64,000 bases of DNA from Protoeuglena noctilucae (taxonomy: Eukaryota). The notes beneath the pieces are model-generated. The model saw only the letters and a list, made by a program, of their open reading frames with translations, made no database searches and was not told where the DNA came from. Made by a program: the position numbers and the translations under genes. Numbering within the stretch: the first letter of the stretch is position 1; each line of letters begins with the position of its first letter. Shown one piece after another: positions 1,137-18,400 of the stretch. The stretch lies in assembly GCA_958009085.1 (NCBI GenBank), contig OY253689.1, positions 124,001-188,000 of the forward strand. Reading direction: 5' to 3'.

Positions 1137-4100
1137 TTATGGCTGCACCAGGTACACCCGCTGCCCCTCCACCCGCACCAGCGCTGATTGCCTCAGCCCC
1201 TGCATGGCCGCCTCCTCGGCACCCGCGACCCCCTGCATGCCCTGCCGCCTGCGAGTGACAAGAGGTGAAAAGCGATTCATAGTTGCCATCAAGCAGCTCT
1301 GACATGGTGTGTGAGATTGTTACCGAGCAAGGCAGAGTATGGGTGACAGCAACCACCCGTCCCACACCTGAGTATCTTGGACACCAGTTTGTCCAGGCTG
1401 ACGTCCTCACGGCCGTGCGACCGCATCGCCGACGCAGCCACGGCGCCCCAGTCCACGCCCGTGGCATTTTGCACATGGTCCCCGCGATGGTCCTTGTGAC
1501 CATCCGCATGACCCTTGCTGTGCCCGTCACCACCATGAGTGTCCTTGTGACCATCGGCGTGACCGTTGCTGCCATCAGCCTCACTGACGGGTCGGCCGCT
1601 TTCAGCACCCGTGCCACCCCCATGCGTACTAGGCACGCGCACGTCCCCCTCCGCAGCACCAGCACCACCACCACTCACATCTCCCTCGCCACCCATATGC
1701 TGGTCCACCACCCCACCGCTCGCACCCAAACCCTCGGTCCCTTCCCTGCGCCTCTTGCTCTCATCCCCATCCTCTCCTTTCTTCCTATCCCCCTTATCCC
1801 TCTTCCGCTTCTTTTCCCTTTTTGCCCCATCCCCTACCTCTCCCCTCTCCCTTCCCTTCTTATCCCTTGCTCTATCCTTCTTGCCCCCCCTCTCAGCCCG
1901 ACCACCAGCCCCCTCTTCCCCTCCCACCTCCCCCGACACCCCCACCTGTTCCCCAACCACCCTGCCACCCTTATCCACCTTATCCCCTCCCTCTGCAGCC
2001 ATGACGCCCCTCCCACCCACCTCCTCGCCCTTCCTCGCTCTCTTGCCTTCTGACTCGTCCACCCCGTCACCCTTATTACCCCTATCGCCCTTATCCCTCT
2101 TATCACCCTTCCGTTTCTTGTCCTTCCTAGCAGCCTTCTTGCTATCCCCACCCTCTGCGCCCCCCTTCTCGCCCCCCACCCCCTGCCCATCCACCCCATC
2201 CCTCCCACCCTCATCACCATCACCATCCCCACCCCCCCCCTCCTCCCCCTCATCTCCCTCATCCCCCGCCCCCTGCCCCTCCCTCCCCTTCCCCCTCTCC
2301 TCCCTCCACTCCCTCTGCCACTCCTTCTCCGGCACTCGATGCCTTGTGACACGAACCCTCACCCCCCCGTTCGATGCACCACTGTGACCACCACCCGCAC
2401 CACTGCCACCCTTACTGTAACCACCACCATCGCTACCCTCACTGCCACCCTCGCTGTCCCCCTCACTGTTGTCCCCCTCGCTGTCACGAGGCCCCTCGCC
2501 CCCCACCATCACGTTGTCAATCTCCTTTGGCAAATGCTTTTCCATCAGATAGTCGACCATCTGAGCGAACTCCGCACGCCTCCGCACCCACAACGGCGCC
2601 GCGCCCTTCATGAGGCCCCAACGACGCCGGCACAGGGACCCTGAGGCAGGGGAGAGGAAGGGGATGAGGGTTAAGGATAAGGGAGGGAGGGTTGGCAAAT
2701 GACAGTAGTCTACTAGGAGGGTGGAGAGGGGAGGGTCAGCGAGTGTGTGCGGTCTCAAGCACCTCATGCCCCCTCCACCCATCACACATCAACATTCCCT
2801 CACCCGCCCTGCCCCCCACTCAACAACACTCAGTAACACTTCCTCACCCGCCCTCCCTGTCACGAGCTTGTCCCACTCCACTTGGAACTCGTACCTCCAC
2901 CCCTGCACCTGCACGCCCCCCCACAGCGCCCGCAGCAGCGACCGGTCCTCGTGGCCGCCCCCCCACAGGCCACGCTCTCGCATCGAGGGGGACACGTGGC
3001 CGTACCAACGCAGACTGGGGGGTGGAGAAGGGTGGGTGGGTGCTTGCGAGTGGTCATGCCAGGTACATTCGGTAGCATTACAGGGACGCTGGGAGTGGCG
3101 AGCGATTACCACACAGTTGCCCTGCCAACAAGACATTCCGTATACCTGCACTGCACTGCTACCATTGACGACTAGCAGCCCCATTAACCGTTCCACCCTC
3201 ACCGGCACTGTGACACGCCCCTGCCCCCCACCGCCTGCGCCACCACCACCCAATTGACGCCATCGCCTTTCGTGAAAGGGCGGCCCTCCCCGGCGGCCTC
3301 CATGTACTGCGAAAGGCACCAGCAGAGCGATGATTACAGTGGCTCAGGTGAGGCTGGCACAGCAAAGCAACATCTGCTCTCAAAGATTCCATCCACCGCC
3401 GGTCTGCCTGCACAACCACCCACAAACACCACCGCCACACTACCCCTCGCCTTCTCGACCGCCTGCTGCAGCCTCGCGTCCTCGTCCGCGTCCCACGCTC
3501 CCTTCCGCATCGCGTCCCCGCCCGCGATCTCCCGATGCCGGTACTTGCACGAGTCCGGGGGCCGCCCCAGCTCCGCGCCGATCGCCACCCACTTGGGCCC
3601 CCGCGCCGCCACCGCGGCACGCAGCGCCCGGTCGTCCTTGGTCGTCCAGGGCTTGCTGCGGGGTGCGCGATAGTTGGATTTTAGCACCCATATGCCGAGA
3701 ATCAGGACGCGGCGCGGCGGTTCTCGCGCGCGTGCGCGCTGCGCCCACCGGCCCTGGTCACGCTGGGCCATGCCCTGCGCCTTCTCGAGGAGCGAGCGCT
3801 GCCTGCGGTGCGGCATCGCGACGCTCAGGACCCACGTCAGGTCCTTCGACGGTCCCTTGGCCCGCCCCGGCCACAGCCACGACGTGTCGTCGCGGCTCAG
3901 GCCCTTGATCCCTGCACGAAGCAAAAGCGCAGCACACGGCCGCGTCGGCGCCGCCCGGGACCGACGGCGCTGGCAGCCGCCGATGCAGCCACGCATTTCT
4001 CACTCGCGTAGATGTCCAGCGCGCGCGACAGGAACCGCTCCTCGTCCTGCGTCCAAGAACCGAGCTTGAAGGCCGCGCTCTTGTCGCCCCTGTTGAACAG

Positions 4101-4259
4101 GCCCCGCTTGCGCCCCCGCGCGATGGCCTCGCGCATCAGGGACTCCAGCTGCGCGTCGCTCCTCCGCAGAATCTCCTCCGGCGGGGGCGGCGGGGCGTCC
4201 GAAGACGCGTCCGACGCGGACGAGCTCGCGCCCGAGCCGCTGTCGCTGCGGGCGCTCAT
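1137..4259 (-). CDS. Reb1/TTF1/DMTF1-like multi-Myb protein with K/G/E-rich linker and C-terminal LYAR-like winged-helix segment
   Basis: Spliced Myb repeats: KLGSWTQDEE, KPWTTKDDRAL...GPKWVAIGAELGRPPDSCKYRHR, KGAWDADEDARLQQAV...VNWVVVAQAVGGRGVSQCRLRWY, HEDRSLLRAL...VEWDKLV...CRRRWGLM...FAQMVDYL. Last exon ends LVRVEGQRVYLVQP-TAA (1137-1139). Confidence 0.8.
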
Positions 4260-4716
4260 GGCGGGGAGCTGGCTTCGCGTCCAGATGGCGATGGCATGCG
4301 CGCTTGCCGGGTTTGTGGGTGCTGACGTGCGCGTGCCAGGCGGGGGTGTACCTGCAAGTGGCATTTTTGGCTTTCCTGTCGTCGGGGCGGTGCTGCACTT
4401 GGTACCGCTGTGACGATTGCCTGGAGCCGCGGAGTGCTCGTTAGCTGCGTTAGAACGTCCGTCCGCCCAAGCGGCGGCTGCATCTGGGGAGCCCGTTTAC
4501 GGGCGCGTGGTGCGCGGACGAGCTTTGTTGCTTGCCTCATCGGCGTTGGAAGGGAGCGAAGGGTGCACATGCAGAGCCCAGGCTGCCCCGGGGGCGGCGG
4601 GTGGAGGCGGGGTGAGCGTGGTGGTGGGCGGGGCAGTCGCGAACAATTTCCGACGCGGATAGTTTGCTAGAGGGCAGCGTAGACAGCAAACTTAATGTTG
4701 CTTCTGCTGCATGCAG

Positions 4717-7700
4717 ATTCCGGACATAAAGGAGTTTTCAAAACTGAGGCCAATTCAGAACTGCAAGGACCTTTGGTTGTTGCTGAAGCAGGCACAGAGA
4801 GAGCATGCGGTAGAAGTCATGAACTTACTCAAGGTCGCGGAATACTACCTGAACGGAGCCTCGGGGTATCTTGTAACAACCGGCGACCAGGACCTCGGCG
4901 TCAGCTTCAACGCATCCCTCCGCACAGGGACAGTCCTCTTGCTGTCTGCCCTTGACCGTGAGGAGTTGCATGCGACTGTAGGTAAATCAGTTTTATTGGG
5001 CCTTGCTGACTCACCTGCTTTTATTTTTATTACAGGTAACAAAAACCGTCTTCTGTTAAGCTAAGAATCCGTCACGACATATTGTTTTAGCCTGTTTTGT
5101 TACGCTGCAACTTTCTATTTTTGCCCTCAGACCTGGCAGTCTTCTACCAGCGTCATTATACGACTGTTAATTCGGCTGACTACAAGGCCTTCGACGAGTG
5201 CGGAGATTTACTGCCCAAAGCGTCCAGCGAGCCCATGGTTCAGCTTCTGAGTACCATGCATGAGCACATCGAAAATGAGAACACTTGGTTTGCGGATTTC
5301 CGGACTTTCAGAGAAATCGTCCTGTACCTCAAACATGTTCGCCCGTTCCTGGGGTTGATTGGAGGAAGTCAAGGCGTGAGGGACGTCGTATGGGTAGACA
5401 CTTCGAACAACCCACCCAACCTTCCCTCCCGCCTCTTGTTCCACGATGTCGTGGTGGAGGTGAGCTGCAGCATGCGGTGCCCATGTCATCAAGCAAACGT
5501 GCGTTTTCTGGCTTGGGACTGTGACTGGTCGACTTCTGTTCCTGTTTTCAGGTCTACAAGTACGTGATGGTGGGCATGGAAAAGTTTGCCGAGATAAACG
5601 GAATCACCTACGTGCTAAAAAACTTGCAAGAGCAGGCCCGGACAGGCGCAAGGAGACATGCAGCGACAGGGAGCGGGGTGGGCGGGGGGGGGGGGGGGGT
5701 GCCTCCACTTCAACAGCGGGGGGCAAGGTTCCAACCTTATATTCGAGGGTAATGCCATGGTGGTCCTGGAGTCGTTCAAGCATGCAGGGGAAGTCCTGTG
5801 AAAGGCTGTGGAACAGCTGCCAGGCGGGAGTGAGCAGGACCTTTTTACGTTCTTATGCCCTGGCTTGCTGGCCCTGCACACCTCTCTTGACGGTGAGTTC
5901 TGTGCTGCGTTTTCCTTGACTGGCATACGCGGAAAAAATTGCATGTCACATGATTAATGTTATTGTTGTTATTGTTGTTGTTATTCTACTCTTCTTTTTA
6001 TTGTTTATTTGTTGATTGTTTATTGTTGTCCGTTTCCCATTTCCTCGCAGCTTTGGCATCATTCATCAATCAACGGGATTGTGCAGTGGTCATAACAGCT
6101 GCGAAGGAATTTCTGGAGATGTTGGGTATGCAGAACGCCTCACCGGAGCTGACTTTCGACGTGTACTTCAACAAGTACAACTTTACTGACCTGTACCTGG
6201 CCAAGCTCAAGGAGATAAAGCACCCGGTGCTGGGGTTCAGGTTGTACCAAACACTCAACGAGTGCGCCAACAATCTCAAGCATGGGCGTGCCAAGTTGGG
6301 CGACTTCAAAGTGCCGGAGGAAAGCGACGATTTGTTCGTCTACACGGACTTTTGGAGGAATGTCCAAGGCAACTCAAGACCCTTTGGCGTCTTCCATGAC
6401 TTGGTGAAGCCGGTAAGGATATTCAGGATATATGGTGGCAAGCCCTGAATTTCACTTTCACTTTCGATTTTTTTTTATTTCTTTTTCCTTTGCAGATGTA
6501 CGAGGGATGCCCGTGCGCAAGGCCGTGACAACATTTGCCGAAGTGTATGGTTTTCAGGGCCGACTCGATATGGTTATGCCCTTGCTGGAGAGCACGTTCG
6601 TAGAAGGAGGGGGCGGAGCAGGGGCAGGCGCAGTGGCAGGGGCAGTGGCAGTGGTAGTGGCGGGGGCAGTGGCAGGGGTAGTGGCAGGGGCAGGGGCAGT
6701 GGCAGGGGCGGCAGTGGCCGGGGCAGGGGCAGGGGCAGTGGCAGGGGCAATGGCGGGGGCAGTGGCAGGGGCAGGAGCAGTGGCAGGGGCAGGGGCAGTG
6801 GCAGGGGCAGGCGCAGGCGCAGGGGCAGGGGCAGTGGTAGGGGCAGTGGTAGGGGCAGGCGCAGGGGCAGGGGCAGTGGCAGGGGCAGTGTCAAGGGCAG
6901 GGGCAGTGGCAGGGGCAGTGGCAAGGGCAGGGGCAGGCACACGAAGGCGGGGCAGGGGGAGCAGGGCGCCAACTCGTGTAGAACCTTTGACCAATCATGC
7001 CGTGAGGGTTTTAACATCTTTTAGGACTGCAGGGGAGCATTTGCAAGAGGCAGTGGAAGCATTGCCAGGCGGCGATAAAATAAGGGTCCTTCAGTCTTTG
7101 ATCCCTGGTCTGCAGGGCCTGCACAACTCTCTGGACAGTAAGTCTAGTGCTTGACGCAAGGAGTACTTGGCCGTTGCGAGACTAATAATAAGGTGTTCTT
7201 CCCTCGCTTCCTCGCAGTTTTGGCGTTGTTCGTCCACCACCGCGACTGCAAAGTGGTTGGGGCTTTTGGAAGGAACTTTCTCCAAAGGATTGGTCTGCAG
7301 GAAGCCCCGGTGACGCCGACATCTACAAAAAAAAGCTTCAGTCAGTATGTCTTCACTGACACGTACCTGGTCAACCTCCAGAAGGTGGAGCACCCGGTTT
7401 TCAGTTCTAAAACGTACAAGGCGCTTGTTGAGTGCATCCAGGATCTCGAGAGAAATCCTTATAGCCTCGGCGACTTTAAGAGGCAGGAGGAACGCGGCCG
7501 GATGGATTTTTGGAAGATTCGTGCCACTGTGATCAGCCCGGACGTTACTGGAGTCTTCTGCGACATTGTGAAGCCGGTAAGCAAATTTGATTTTGACATC
7601 ATTCCTCGTCATGTAAGTAATATTGATGTAATTTGCATTGTTGTTTAAGACATGTAGGTTTCACCATAATTACCTTTCCTGTTCGCAGATGTACAATGCC

Positions 7701-7904
7701 GTTTACGATGCCATGGCCACGTTTGCCAAGGTGTACAACCTTCAAGGCAGACCCGATATAGAAATGCCCAGGTTGGATGAGAGAAACATCGCCCGGACTT
7801 TTGTTCGTCGGGGACGTGGTCGGCGGGTTTCTCAGGGGTTACGTCGATTGATCCTGGTGGTCGCCATTACCGGCGCAATTTCTGTGCTAAAATTAATTCG
7901 GTAA
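4717..7904 (+). pseudogene. Low-GC multi-exon gene with three tandem copies of an alpha-helical HEPN-like domain, apparently disrupted
   Basis: Exons 4717-4957, 5131-5459, 5552-5892, 6051-6412, 6496-7137, 7218-7576, 7689-~7900. The three repeats share intron positions and phases (LD|xLA phase 1; FxDxVxP/E|M/VY phase 0). In-frame TGA at 5799-5801 and frameshifts at ~5685-5750 and ~6502-6512. Start codon not located. Confidence 0.65.
6616..6938 (+). repeat. GCAGGG/GCAGTG hexamer array encoding an Ala/Gly/Val linker
   Basis: Imperfect 6-bp tandem repeat, in frame between domain copies 2 and 3. Confidence 0.9.
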
Positions 7905-8118
7905 GTATTATGATATACCAGCGGATGGAGCATGCAGATGTCCTGCAGCCAACTTTGTTTGGTAACAATGCGCTCCCAGGGGACGTGTCCTATGCACTTG
8001 GCCGACCTTTTGTTCATACCATGCCCACATGGTTTGCCCGCGGCACTGTCAGCCCTGCGCGTCTACGACCTCAGTATCATCCGCTGCAAGTACTGGTGTC
8101 TGCTAGCACGGGCTTACC

Positions 8119-8206
8119 TCACACAACGCCCCCATTATTAGACATCCCTTTACATCATAGTATCACGGGCTCACATCACACAACGCCCTTATTATTAAAC
8201 ATCCTC
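8119..8206. repeat. Short diverged direct duplication
   Basis: tcacacaacgcccccattattagacatccc and tcacacaacgcccttattattaaacatcct, about 57 bp apart. Confidence 0.7.
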
Positions 8207-8599
8207 TGCGCCATAGTCTTTGCCGTGCGCAGCATTAGCACCACCCGGCAGGCGCGGTCGCCAACGCCTGGCCCTAGCTTCATACGTGCTTTCCATGTTT
8301 GCGTGCATCGACCCTGCCATGTTAGCGCCGACCCAGCACCCTTGCTTGTTTGCATTTGTTGTGTGTTGTCTGCAACCACGGCGCCACACGTCTCTTTACG
8401 TCATGCCACGACTCACGGTTGCCGTCGATAAGAAGAGGAGGGAGGACTGGTTGGTAGGAGCCGGTCCATCATGGCTAGGCACCATTGAACCGCAGCTGCT
8501 GCGCAACCCAGCCTCGCAACCTCGCCACCAGTCCCCCGTCATCGCCATCTACCCCGCCCCTCAAGGGCCTCATCCCCTCTCCGCCACCCCTCCACTCCC

Positions 8600-8704
8600 T
8601 CACGCGTAGTTGCGCTCCGGCGAGGCGTCCCCGGGCGGCGGCGACCTGAAAGAACGACACCACAACACACCGTTACCACGCAGCCCCACGCAGCCCATGC
8701 TCAC

Positions 8705-8742
<38 letters not shown>

Positions 8743-10282
8743 CAAAGTCTCCTCCCCTCTCTTACCTCCTCGTCGGGCTGCCGTTGGCGTCCCCGCGGCC
8801 CGGGGAGTCCCGGCGCGGCGACAGGTCCCGGCGCGGCGAGTCGCGGCGCGGAGAGTAGTCCCGGCGGGGCGGGGAGCGGTCGCGCGGCGGCGAGTCACGG
8901 CGAGGGGAGTCCCGGCGCGGGGAGTAGTCCCGGCGGGGCGAGCGGTCGCGCGAGTAGCTCCTGCGAGCGAGGCAGAGGGGTGGGAGGGGCGGGTGAGCCG
9001 ACACGCGCATTCTGCCGCTCCTAGTGACCTCGGCCGGGATCCATCGCTCCGTCATTAAATGTCGACCTTCCGCCGCCCGGCCTGGGAGAAACGGGCCGGG
9101 CGCTGACCTGCGGTAGTAGCCGTAGCTGTCATAGGGGGAGCGTGACCGCAAGCGGTACCTCCGGTATCCTCGGCCGTCGCGCCTCGAGTCGTAGCCGCGG
9201 TCGCGGTAGCCGCCACGGTCGTAGCCGCGATCGTAGCCGCGATCGTAGCCGCGGTCACGGTAGCCGCCCCGGTCGTAGCCCCCGCCGCCCCCGTAGCCGC
9301 CGCCGCGGCCGGACATCATCCTGCGAGACTCAAGTGTGCATCGGGTTTACGATAGCCGAGCAGGCCGCCCGCACACACCGCACACATCCCCAACGCACCT
9401 GCGCATCTCCTCCGGCCTCTTGCGCTGCTCCTTCGCGAAGCACACCTCGAGCGTGCGGCCCATCATCTCATACCCGTTCATCGCTGCGAGCAAGGAGCCG
9501 CGGATCGGTCAGCGCCGCGCCGTACGCCCCACGGGTGGCAGCCTGCGCACGCGTGCATCCCCACGCACCGCGCTCCGCGTCCTCCGCGTCCCGGGGGTCG
9601 ATGAACTCCACGAACGAGAAGCCACGGGGGCGCCTGCGGCCAGAGCGGGCGGCGGCGGTGGCGCCCGGGACCGGGTGGCCTCGGCCAACCTCCACGAACT
9701 GTCTGCCCCCTCCCCGCGCCTCCCCCCGCCCCCTCACCGGCCGCTCGGGGCACCTAGAGACAGCAACAAGGTCTTGTTCTCGACCGCAGCAAAACGAACG
9801 CGTCAGGGCTTGCGCTCGGACCGGGGCGTGCTTGCGGCTCGAAAGGCCTGGGAGGGTCGGCCTCCGCCACAACCATGCACCCATCGGCTTGGGACGGCCT
9901 CGCTCCCCTAGCTGGTCTCGACAACACGACTGGCCACGTACCCGGACACCCGGAGCGCCCCTGGCGGCCACGGCGTCCTCCGGCTGGCACCCGATCGCTC
10001 GGCTCTCACCCCGTGTTGTGGTCCTTCGGAATGTAGACGTCCCGGATGTCTCCGTACTTCGAGAAGAGCTCGTGCAGGTCTTGCTGGCTGCGAGGGAGGG
10101 AGCCGGACTTTCGCTCGTCACCCGATGACCCGATGGCCTCCCCGTCGCGGCCGATCCCCGTCTCGTTTTCCGACGACGCACCTGGCCCGGTCGGGGACGT
10201 TCCTCACGAGCAGGGACACCCTCTTCCTGCCCCCCTCCCGGTCGCTGCGCTCATCCCGCTCGTACCGGTCCCGGTCGCTCAT
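8600..10282 (-). CDS. SC35-like (SCL subfamily) SR splicing factor, RRM + RS domain
   Basis: MSDRDRYER...VSLLVRNVPD, YGDIRDVYIPKD, PRGFSFVEFIDPRDAEDA, MNGYEMMGRTLEVCFAKEQRKRPEEMR; GYDR and SPRRD repeats; ends ERNYA-TGA. Confidence 0.9.
8706..8740. repeat. (CA)n microsatellite in the last intron of the SR gene
   Basis: About 17 perfect AC units. Confidence 0.95.
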
Positions 10283-15427: not shown

Positions 15428-18400
15428 TCACGCCGAGCTCGCCGCCTGCGCTTTGACCTTCCCCCCCTCCCCCGCTGTCGCCCTCCTCTCCACGGTCATC
15501 TTCAGCCCGTTGCGCGTGTGGATGGTGGCCCCCGTGGTCAGCCCCACCTCTTCAGGCGGAGTGGCCAAGGCGAAGCGGAAGCGACGCACCAGCATGGCCA
15601 GGCACACCGTGGCCTCGAACATGGCGAACTGCGAGGGGTGAATGGGGACTTGTATTGATTGAGATGTGCGCTCAAAAATGGCTAGGCACACGGTGGCCTC
15701 GGACATCGCAAACTGCGATGGGTTAGTGGGGGAGTGCGTTGGTTAAGATGTACATGCAAGCATGGCCAGGCACACGGTCGCCTCGAACATGCCTCTACCC
15801 ATGCACGTCGCATGACCTGTACAAACCGCTACCCCAGCACATGCCCTCGTATGTCGTTAACTACCCAGCACCGTGTCTCACCTGGTCCCCCACGCATTTG
15901 CGCATCCCCCCCCCGAACGGCAGGTAGGCGAAGTCCGCCATGGTCTCATTGGGGTAGAGGGCGCCGGGGGAGGCGTCGGGGTTGAAGCCGGACCACTGGG
16001 GGGGAACGGGGGATGTGGGAGTGAGGGAAGGGAAGGCGGAGAGGGGGAGTGGTGCAAGGGGTGGCGAGGGTGGGGCGGAGTGGGAGGGAAAGGCGTAGAG
16101 CAGCGAATGGGCCGCGACACACTCTATCCATCCTCCTCCTCTTCCCCCCTCTCACGATGTCTTCCTACCCCCCACACACCCCACGCAACCCCTCCCCTTG
16201 CACCACCCCAACACCCCCACCTTGTCCTTCCACTCCGGCCGCGGCTCACGGCGCTCGGTGAACCTCTCGGGCCGGAAGGTCGCGGGTTCGTCCCAGAGCA
16301 GCGGCGACCGGTGGAGATTCCACGTGGAGATGAAGACGTCGGCCCCCTTGTTCAATGGGACAGAGGGGAGGTCCGTCAGTCCTCCGGGCAGCTCCACGTC
16401 TTTCAGTGTGCGGCGGATGAGGAAGGGGGGCTGGGGGTACATGCGGAGGGACTGCGGGGGTGGAGGTGGGGTGTGAGGCATCCTCCGCCAGGCACGCCCC
16501 TCACTTAACCTGCTCCCACCCCCATCCTTCCCCTCTCCGCAACCCCCGTCACCTCAGCCAGGCACGCCCCTCACCATCCCCACCCTCACCCAACCCCTAC
16601 CTCCACCCCTCCCCCTCACCTCTGCCAGGCACGCCCGTGTGTAAGGCAGCGCCTTGATGTCGTCCAGCGTCGGCACGCGGTCCCCCAGCACCTCGTCGAT
16701 CTCCCGTTCGAGTCTGGCCAGCGCCTGGGGCGCCTGGGCCAGGCTGAAGAGCGTCCACGTGAGCACGGCAGCGGTCGTCTCGTGCCCGGCGATGAGCATC
16801 GTCATCAAATCGTCCCGCAACTGTTTATTCGAAATGTCCTCTCCCCGTGAATCGACCAGGAATCGCAGGAGTGAGGGGTCCTTGATTTTGCTGTAGTCGC
16901 GTGCTTGCAGGGCCTCCATGTCGTCCTCCTGTCGGGTCTCCTTGGCCTTGTCAATCAACTCGTCCAATGCCTGGAGTGGTATGAGGGCATGGGAGGGGTA
17001 ACGGTGGCATTGAGGGTAGCCATGAGGGTGGGGGTAGTGAGGGTGGCAGTGGGGGTGGCAGTGGGGGTGGCTGTGAGGGAGGCAGTGGCAGTGAGGGTGA
17101 GGTGCAAGCACGGACCCCACACAGTCGCCACCCACTCCCACTTTCTAAAGTGTCACCTTAGAAATCACCCCCATCTGTTCCTTGAACTTCCTCTGCCTCG
17201 GCACCACCAGGTCATTCCCGGGGATGTTCCAGTAGGGAATGTAGAAGGTCGAACGGTGCTCGGCCTCGCGGAGCACACCGTACACGGCCTGGGTGGGGTG
17301 ACAGGTGGTGGAGAGGTGGTGATGGGCAGGGCGGTAATGTTGAGTAGGGAGGTCTGGTGATGTGAGAAGCGATGTGAGAGTGGCAGGGGTGTAGAGGTGG
17401 TGACGGAGACAAAGTCGCAGCTGCAGTGAGTCCCATTGATAGATACCATGCCATTTTATAGTAAGTGATGGTACTATCTTATATCATAGCACCACAACTC
17501 CCTCGCCTTGATGACGGGCGACTCGGACGTGACGGACCCAAAGTCGTAGTTGAAGACCCCCAGTCCGATGATGTCCAGGGCCACGTTCAAAAACTCCGTC
17601 TCCATGTCAAGCACAGGCTTGCCGTCCTATGTTGGGTGGGAGGGGAGAACAGGGTGGGGGTGGAGGTGGTTGTGAGGATTAATTGCCCCCTGGGGGTGCA
17701 GAATGATGCAGCACTGCACAGCTCTAACCAAGGCGGCACATCAACCGGCACCGCAACGGCAAGACACAACAGCAGAAGCAGCACCGTATGAGCCATGCCT
17801 CACTCCCTTGCCCTCTCTAACCCCTTCTCATAACACTGTCTCAAACCCCATGCCACCCTCACCTTGCGCCCCAGCAGCCCCCCGACCTGCTTCCCGTCGA
17901 TGGCGTCCCCCAGCTTGGCCACGGTGCGCTCCGTGCACTGCCCGAACATCTGAATCATCGCATTCAGGTACGCCTTGTGGAAACCGGGGACGATGGCACG
18001 GCGGCGCACCTGCAGGATGCGGTGGATGGGATGGGATGGGTGGGTGACGCAGTGCACACACACCGGCAGCGAGGGGATCTCAACTCAAGTGGACCCCGAG
18101 GAACGGCAGATGGAGCAGCTCATACAAGAGGCAACTCGTATAATACTCGTAATCCCATTCCCATCATCTTCGACAGCCCTTCCTTCTCTCGCCTGCCACG
18201 TCTCGAGGTCGGCCGGGATGAGCCCCTTCCCCATGATGGCCTCGAGGATCTCGGCCAGCACGCCCTTGTCGAAGCTATAGGCCTCCTCGCGAAGAATGAA
18301 GCGAGCGATGACGGGGTCCGACACGATCAGGAACGCCTGCGGGGAGAAGGAGTTTGGTAGTGATGGGCACTGCATCTACTGCAGTGGCGCTCCCCACGCT

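Follow-up and report, generated by a model that had tools for sequence, protein, structure and literature searches.

The 64,000-nucleotide stretch of the Protoeuglena noctilucae genome analysed here (assembly GCA_958009085.1, contig OY253689.1, positions 124,001 to 188,000 of the forward strand; called the window and numbered from its first letter) carries, between positions 4420 and 7904, a transcribed and spliced gene made up of three collinear units of about 190 amino acids each. A first-pass annotation of the same letters had described this locus as a horizontally acquired gene for three tandem HEPN domains, i.e. as a candidate RNase, toxin or defence gene. Our analysis points, with moderate confidence, to a different picture: The locus seems to be a lineage-restricted orphan gene whose ancestral three-module protein was interrupted fairly recently, and from which unit 1, and possibly unit 3, is still made.

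The locus is an expressed nuclear gene

The stretch is present, wholly or partly, in 13 public sequencing runs from four studies, and four of the 13 are recorded as marine metatranscriptomes. Over positions 4200-8400, we compared two RNA runs (X8 and X10) with two DNA runs, a marine metagenome (X5) and a run labelled with the organism (X1). The RNA evidence consists of assembled contigs, which report on junctions and presence and not on transcript ends, strand or expression level. Seven joints of the GT..AG type were found in the X8 contigs, and two of them (6413-6495 and 7577-7688) also in X10; in the DNA runs X5 and X1 there were none, the pattern of a nuclear gene with spliceosomal introns. 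Since the RNA contigs confirm these introns, we can conclude that the locus is an expressed nuclear gene, and the orientation of the GT..AG borders places its transcription on the plus strand. The same sequence is found in culture-derived and in metagenome contigs.

The splice model proposed in the first-pass annotation agrees with six of the seven introns; confirmed are the joints 5459/5552, 5892/6051, 6412/6496, 7137/7218 and 7576/7689 as well as the exon start at 4717. The first donor of unit 1 has to be corrected: The site used is 4982 rather than 4958. Both are phase 1, and the shift adds the eight residues REELHATV, so that unit 1 reads ...LSALDREELHATV-D-LAVF in place of LSALD/HLAVF (slashes in peptides mark introns). 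At the 3' end, a GTAAGT overlaps the TAA at 7902-7904; since X10 record 7, which is continuous over 7688-8400, is unspliced at this place, the TAA is the stop codon. The intron at 7138-7217 is retained in one X10 contig (record 6, unspliced over 7008-7234).

Three units that are related to different degrees

The peptide strings on which the first-pass annotation was built are all encoded in the DNA, at or beside the places where they had been put (ANNLKH, for example, at 6266-6283). The homology of units 2 and 3 is clear. After splicing, they are 44% identical over 202 amino acids (E 9e-51), and each exon matches its counterpart, exon 2 in BLASTP (E 7e-27), exon 1 and exon 3 in tblastn (1.5e-6 to 7e-11 and 1e-5 to 8e-5, respectively). 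At the DNA level, stretches of 39-63 nucleotides with 74-79% identity lie in register at a spacing of 1164-1170 nucleotides, and these conserved stretches include the first intron's acceptor and the second intron's donor. Unit 1, which is far more divergent, matches units 2 and 3 in BLASTP at E 0.03-0.07, with an identity of about 20%. When unit 1 was aligned by hhalign to a profile of units 2 and 3, the score was 27.7 as compared to 13.9±1.9 for shuffled sequences, and none of 100 shuffles reached 27.7. The aligned stretch covers residues 142-217 of unit 1, i.e. its C-terminal ~75 residues, and crosses the phase-0 intron common to the units (...FHDVVVE/VY... versus ...F[HC]D[LI]VKP/MY...). 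No significant similarity was detected for the N-terminal half of unit 1, for which 87 and 297 of 1000 shuffles matched the observed local scores; the likeness of HAVEVMNLL... in unit 1 to HAVRVLTSF... in unit 3 is one seen by eye. The proposal of three homologous units thus holds for units 2 and 3 along their full length and for the C-terminal ~75 residues of unit 1, and it is not borne out for the N-terminal half of the latter. Using nine exon pieces as tblastn queries, we found no further copies of the unit in the window.

The intron positions are homologous among the units as well. A phase-0 intron precedes the (V/M)Y codons in all three, and a phase-1 intron follows the S-L-D codons of units 2 and 3, where unit 1 has an unused candidate donor. 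Because of these homologous positions, the introns are older than the duplications, as the first-pass annotation had suggested for the triplication.

The contig that carries unit 2 in the DNA run X1 (5710-6605) has a mean word depth of 226 as compared to 111 and 93 in the flanking contigs; in the metagenome run X5, the same three contigs are even (depth 14-15.6). The excess in X1 may reflect repeat words of high copy number at the ends of the contig, or else unit 2 may be present twice in that strain.

The reading frame is interrupted around the middle unit

A stop codon and a frameshift are present both in the RNA and in independent DNA, and one three-unit protein is therefore excluded for this sequence; the contiguous three-domain chain assumed earlier has to be given up. 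The frame of unit 1 terminates at TAA 5750-5752, shortly 3' of a run of 16 G (G16, 5684-5699), and a run of 15 or 18 G would place unit 1 in the frame of unit 2. In unit 2, the counterpart of a CAA (Gln) codon of unit 3 is an in-frame TGA (5799-5801). After its second intron, unit 2 has 23 nucleotides as compared to 18 in unit 3, and this difference of five nucleotides shifts the frame towards a stop at 6526-6528; the C-terminal helix of unit 2 (KAVTTFAEVYGFQG...) runs on in the frame of unit 3. The RNA contigs and the two DNA sources show neither other letters nor gaps at the TGA and over 6496-6528, and the same is true for the RNA contigs over 6495-6605; over 5710/5730-5891, X8 record 12 and the X5 and X1 DNA contigs have no other letters. 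Since the RNA contigs and the DNA contigs of two sources agree, the lesions of unit 2 are not assembly errors. Positions 5668-5709 and 6606-6949 were skipped as repeats in this comparison, and the length of the G run is as assembled.

Decoding of TGA 5799 as selenocysteine was considered and rejected: No selenocysteine insertion sequence element was found in the Rfam search of 4000-9500 (four unrelated matches, E 0.15-0.6), there is no cysteine nearby, and unit 3 has Gln at this position. An alternative acceptor that would mend the frame of unit 2 was rejected as well; by inspection, none is in frame near 6496-6507, and both RNA contigs use 6496.

The G16 run and a GGGGCA microsatellite (6610-6937, about 55 copies), which encodes a Gly/Ala/Val-rich linker, both fall inside coding exons and coincide exactly with the two linkers between units. 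The unit frames are compatible with an ancestral single open reading frame (ORF) joined through Gly/Ala-rich linkers. Outside the locus, 46 nucleotides at 17046-17091 are 78% identical to the GGGGCA repeat.

That units 1 and 3 are under coding constraint is suggested by several observations. In the 401-codon ORF, the 257 codons outside the repeat stay open in none of 5000 composition-preserving shuffles; the proportion of nonsynonymous differences between units 2 and 3 is lower than that of synonymous differences (Nei-Gojobori, pN 0.359 versus pS 0.588); and all seven introns retain working splice sites. Moreover, unit 2 carries only one stop and one frameshift despite an amino acid divergence of 56% from unit 3, and since the lesions are so few at such a high divergence, they are suggested to be recent.

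A hydrophobic C-terminal segment and a putative tail anchor

The hydrophobic C-terminal tail and possible membrane anchor of the first-pass annotation, LILVVAITGAISVLKLI (7848-7898), is borne out by hydropathy. The Kyte-Doolittle mean over 17 residues is 2.56 at residues 230-246 of the 247 residues of unit 3, with Arg/Lys flanks, as compared to at most 1.2 in unit 1 and 1.37 in unit 2. Judged by hydropathy, there is a single transmembrane segment within ~30 residues of the C-terminus and no other, and the last module is predicted to be tail-anchored. As in tail-anchored membrane proteins, a single strongly hydrophobic segment lies one residue before the C-terminus between basic flanks, and the N-terminal part of unit 3 is devoid of comparable hydrophobicity. 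In contrast to a homologous family, these proteins form a class defined by topology, and the locus is placed in it by hydropathy alone.

No known relatives and no signature of HEPN domains

A profile of the three exon-2 pieces gave three matches at E<=0.001 among 1.84 billion protein representatives. Two of these are ORF calls of this very DNA, each a singleton cluster (seen on 14 and 18 contigs), and the third, a repetitive protein of 856 amino acids (E 6e-4), is spurious. Word-indexed searches returned no match or the self ORF, none of 578 pattern matches in metagenome contigs and none of 261 in viral contigs was confirmed, and matches to PHROGs appeared only at E>=0.05. Thus, no bacterial, viral or other homologue or donor was found in the protein, metagenome and viral searches, and there is no positive evidence for the horizontal acquisition proposed earlier. 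Horizontal transfer is a reading of the anomalous guanine-plus-cytosine (GC) content alone, and long residence is favoured by the presence of seven introns of host type, by the strong divergence among the units and by the missing element borders. A candidate from the scan with exon 2 of unit 3, metagenome locus L001, was rejected because the word GDFKRQEE in its 837-amino-acid ORF (430-2943) is a chance match. This eukaryotic ORF has Asn/Gly/His-rich runs, looks by eye like a FERM or kindlin-type protein and is unrelated to the locus.

According to excerpts of Anantharaman et al. 2013 (PMC3710099), HEPN domains are built on a four-helix up-down core in which helices 2 and 3 are separated by an insert; helix 3 ends in an Rx4-6H motif with a polar residue following the R, and helix 2 often carries an acidic residue. 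Table 1 of that paper gives Cthe_2314 as bacterial with the motif conserved. The searches against family libraries were performed with eight exon pieces rather than spliced units. Pfam and PADLOC returned no family at E<=10 for any of the eight, and in NCBIfam two of the eight matched models of unrelated enzymes far under the cut-offs (E 0.013 and 3.1), with no HEPN family among them. Among PDB sequences, the best match was PsaF (E 0.43). In the three spliced units, R.{4,6}H has no match in a shared alignment column: It occurs in unit 1 in the C-terminal linker only, in unit 2 as RPFGVFH and in unit 3 twice in the N-terminal part. RPFGVFH, the sole match in a core region, lies in the broken unit, and by our own rough estimate about one match per unit would arise by chance. 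The aligned L-K-H, on which the first-pass annotation relied, is preceded by V-L-Y in unit 1 and by A-N-N in unit 2, with no Arg four to six residues upstream, and unit 3 has L-E-R instead. An aligned Ex3[KR] is missing as well; there is no match in unit 1, and those in units 2 and 3 are at non-aligned places. The exon-2 alignment contains one invariant Glu, six residues before the K-H/E-R position, without a K/R partner.

The structural predictions were not informative. AlphaFold2 models of the exon-2 pieces, made with three-sequence alignments, reached a mean predicted local distance difference test (pLDDT) score of only 39.1 and 49.6. With the better of these low-confidence models, Foldseek found no PDB entry at E<=0.001 and 41 at E<=10, which are generic helical structures, none labelled HEPN. 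In the ESM Atlas, the best answer for exon 2 of unit 2 was a 'selenium binding protein' (0.85), with a cluster of DUF4145, which we take to be HEPN-related, at rank 29 (cosine 0.82); exon 2 of unit 3 retrieved RelE/ParE-like clusters (0.85-0.87). We rejected these answers as support: They are mutually discordant, all lie below the 0.9 line, and they have 85-118 of 256 features in common. A full-text literature search on HEPN in Micromonas returned nothing relevant. Without a profile match or an aligned Rx4-6H, the HEPN identity lacks support. HEPN RNases, including the bacterial Cthe_2314 family, are metal-independent, small and helical modules that act in pairs, are found in tandem or duplicated arrangements and are often linked to conflict systems; the locus would resemble them in its tandem modules, predicted with low confidence to be helical, and it does so in the short His-containing motif of two of its three units. 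It differs from them in lacking the Arg four to six residues before the aligned His, the His itself in unit 3 and any profile match, and in the greater length of its unit, ~190 amino acids with some eight predicted helices. The HEPN, toxin and defence labels are unsupported for this locus.

Coordinates of the locus, its reading frames and the adjacent Myb gene
Feature	Position	Strand	Length, phase	Support and remarks
Myb-domain gene	3337-4260	-		Pfam E 8e-10; oriented divergently from the locus
5' leader exon	4420-4611	+		Minimum 5' extent; X8 record 11 begins at 4420 and has the joint 4610/4611 to 4716/4717
Leader intron	4612-4716	+	105 nt	GT..AG; one X8 RNA contig, no DNA run; removes in-frame ATG 4711
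Unit 1 exon 1	4717-4981	+		First in-frame ATG after leader splicing is 4819
Unit 1 intron a	4982-5130	+	149 nt, phase 1	X8 joint
Unit 1 exon 2	5131-5459	+		Core with IVLYLKH and LLFHDVVVE
Unit 1 intron b	5460-5551	+	92 nt, phase 0	X8; position homologous to 6413-6495 and 7577-7688
Exon, unit 1 C-terminus to unit 2 N-terminus	5552-5892	+		Contains TAA 5750-5752, G16 and, in unit 2, TGA 5799-5801
Unit 2 intron a	5893-6050	+	158 nt, phase 1	35% GC; X8 joint
Unit 2 exon 2	6051-6412	+		Core with ECANNLKH and VFHDLVKP
Unit 2 intron b	6413-6495	+	83 nt, phase 0	X8 and X10 joint
Exon, unit 2 C-terminal helix to unit 3 N-terminus	6496-7137	+		Contains ATG 6507 and GGGGCA repeat 6610-6937
Unit 3 intron a	7138-7217	+	80 nt, phase 1	Spliced in X8
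Unit 3 exon 2	7218-7576	+		Core with ECIQDLERN and VFCDIVKP
Unit 3 intron b	7577-7688	+	112 nt, phase 0	33% GC; X8 and X10 joint
Unit 3 exon 3	7689-7904	+		C-terminal helix, Arg-rich stretch, putative anchor 7848-7898, TAA 7902-7904
Upstream ORF, out of frame	4569-4955	+	93 codons	Starts at the first AUG of the spliced mRNA
Unit 1 ORF	4819-5752	+	230 codons	From ATG 4819
ORF of unit 2 tail, Gly/Ala/Val linker, unit 3 and putative anchor	6507-7904	+	401 codons	From ATG 6507

Composition and neighbourhood of the locus

The locus lies in an island of low GC content that extends over ~3.8 kb (~4.65-8.45 kb), with 47-57%, i.e. about 50%, as compared to 65.4% for the window. The five 1-kb windows with the lowest values in the whole 64 kb are all inside the island (0.49-0.53; mean 0.654, standard deviation 0.043), which places it ~3.5 standard deviations under the GC content of the window. 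The exons of the locus have 51-58% and its introns 33-53% GC, and at third codon positions (GC3) the locus reaches 59-71% as compared to 74-84% in five neighbouring exons, a comparison that omits the mis-phased row 3900-4260. The earlier statement that exons and introns are AT-richer than the neighbours is confirmed by these profiles. The neighbours are ordinary nuclear genes, encoding Myb, ASF1, WD40 and cytochrome P450 proteins and, further on, protein kinases, RPL26, CTLH and RabGAP-TBC proteins and a leishmanolysin-like peptidase. The edges of the island show neither inverted nor direct repeats, and terminal inverted repeats and target-site duplications were likewise not found there.

Several features around the locus deserve mention. 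The ATG of the Myb gene, at ~4260, is only ~160 nucleotides away from 4420, the first base of the RNA contig of the locus, and the two genes may share a bidirectional promoter. Downstream of the stop codon, the region 7902-8450 is still low in GC (0.52-0.56) and has no convincing ORF or Pfam match. A separate X8 RNA contig begins at 7902, where the depth rises from ~12 to 63, and a direct repeat of 44 nucleotides is present (8104-8147 and 8161-8204, 86% identity); this region could be a 3' untranslated region, a convergent transcript or a small non-coding RNA. Just past the island, at 8702-8952, a (CA)20 dinucleotide repeat gives way to GC-rich tandem repeats with periods of 15-69 nucleotides. 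On the other side, at 1500-2500, a GC skew of -0.6 to -0.8 and an AT skew down to -0.45 extend over ~1 kb, an extreme strand asymmetry that points to a C/T-rich low-complexity tract.

Discussion

In our preferred interpretation, the locus is an orphan nuclear gene of a GC-rich marine eukaryote that would have arisen by tandem duplication of an intron-bearing module of ~190 amino acids, predicted to be alpha-helical. Unit 1 would have branched first, and units 2 and 3 would have separated later. The modules would be linked by Gly-rich spacers encoded by the slippage-prone G16 and (GGGGCA)~55 tracts, with a putative tail-anchor transmembrane helix closing the last module. Transcription from the plus strand and accurate splicing take place in natural populations, and the long frame that the ancestor would have had is now broken around the middle unit. 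The anatomy of the locus, its splicing, its lesions and the lack of detectable relatives are shown by the data, whereas the single ancestral ORF, the tail anchoring and the coding constraint on units 1 and 3 are inferred from them. The present sequence might give rise to two products: (i) A soluble unit-1 protein may be made, of 230 amino acids from ATG 4819 or of 266 if the leader intron is retained. (ii) A 401-amino-acid protein could be made from ATG 6507, but only on condition that this ATG is reached by ribosomes or by an internal transcription start; in this protein, unit 3 would be held by a flexible Gly/Ala spacer on the cytosolic side of a membrane. As a working guess, we take the module for a binding or scaffold part, and not for a HEPN nuclease, in a membrane-associated protein that evolves fast and may be related to conflict.

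Several points weigh against this interpretation. Translation of the locus is doubtful, and the evidence for it comes from RNA and DNA contigs. In the spliced mRNA, the most 5' AUG (4569) lies in a different frame, ATG 4711, which is in frame, is lost with the leader intron, and the 401-codon ORF sits far down a transcript that also bears units 1 and 2, with 24 AUGs upstream of its ATG 6507. With the G16 and GGGGCA repeats skipped, the contigs do not link units 1-3 into one transcript. The homology searches were made with exon-2 pieces, and spliced eukaryotic proteins are sparse in the libraries. Finally, the helical prediction comes from models of low confidence (pLDDT 39 and 50), and dN/dS at the divergence of units 2 and 3 is a rough estimate.

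The most serious alternative, although we consider it doubtful, is that the locus is a transcribed relic, i.e. a decaying and perhaps foreign pseudogene whose RNA is made and spliced and yields no functional protein. The TGA and the frameshift of unit 2, the stop between units 1 and 2, the removal of ATG 4711 by splicing, the out-of-frame upstream ORF of 93 codons, the 24 AUGs before the 401-codon ORF and the failure to find homologues in the libraries searched are all in agreement with such a relic. However, the frames of 401 and 230 codons are intact, the 257 codons stay open in none of the 5000 shuffles, pN is below pS in the comparison of units 2 and 3, the splice sites of seven introns are functional, and the sequence is identical in culture-derived and metagenome contigs. 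It is clearly unlikely that, whatever the role of its protein, the locus came in recently from a hitherto unsampled virus or mobile element of the host's lineage, with the low GC content as the signature of the donor: The deficit of ~3.5 standard deviations, the low GC3, the lack of a relative in the libraries searched and the ordinary housekeeping-type genes on both flanks speak for it, but the seven host-type GT..AG introns and the internal identities of 44% and ~20% would require that the element was long resident or came with introns, the island edges have no terminal inverted repeats or target-site duplications, none of the 261 viral-contig candidates was confirmed, and PHROGs matched only at E>=0.05.

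We regard as highly improbable the model of the first-pass annotation, in which an acquired HEPN RNase gene gained introns and was then triplicated to encode a paired, membrane-anchored toxin or defence nuclease. Tandem copies would indeed permit intramolecular pairing, the core exons are predicted, with low confidence, to be all-helical, His residues are present in the L-K-H and F-H-D of units 1 and 2, and the GC content is atypical. All this is outweighed in our opinion by the absence of any Pfam or PADLOC family at E<=10, with NCBIfam giving only unrelated models below their cut-offs; by the lack of an aligned Rx4-6H or Ex3[KR], the KH being preceded by V/A and replaced by E-R in unit 3; by the unrelated RelE/ParE-like clusters that the second Atlas query returned; and by the fact that no bacterial or viral relative was found and that the units are not in one frame. 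Least probable of all the explanations considered is that the module is a new fold or family, present in a single lineage of marine picoeukaryotes and acquired from a source not yet sampled, and that G16 and (GGGGCA)n act as slippage switches. Such a eukaryotic contingency locus, possibly engaged in virus-host conflict, would select by slippage between a soluble one-unit protein and multi-unit membrane-anchored chains. In contingency loci, which are mainly bacterial, homopolymers or microsatellites in coding regions switch reading frames, and the G16 between units 1 and 2 and the 55-copy hexanucleotide between units 2 and 3 are reminiscent of this arrangement. In contrast to such loci, however, the downstream TGA would halt a fused frame anyway, and no variation in length was observed here, both repeats having been skipped in the contig comparison.

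The lineage-restricted orphan gene that we favour has a parallel in the Mamiellales, small marine green algae that carry lineage-specific genes in low-GC 'outlier' regions. Like these genes, the locus is comparatively low in GC, has short introns rich in AT and few if any homologues, and is expressed in the field; it differs in being a 3.8-kb island in a neighbourhood of normal GC content rather than a region of chromosome scale. The newness of the locus is the absence of a known family only and not a new mechanism. It is one of many orphan genes of protists, its value lies in the RNA-verified exon structure, and an annotation as a HEPN toxin or defence gene would be without evidence. If units 1 and 3 are translated, they would represent a module that has no detectable relative among 1.84 billion representatives and whose gene is active in an abundant small eukaryote of the ocean, and the locus would then be a clean case of a compositionally foreign, intron-bearing gene that was born, duplicated and broken.

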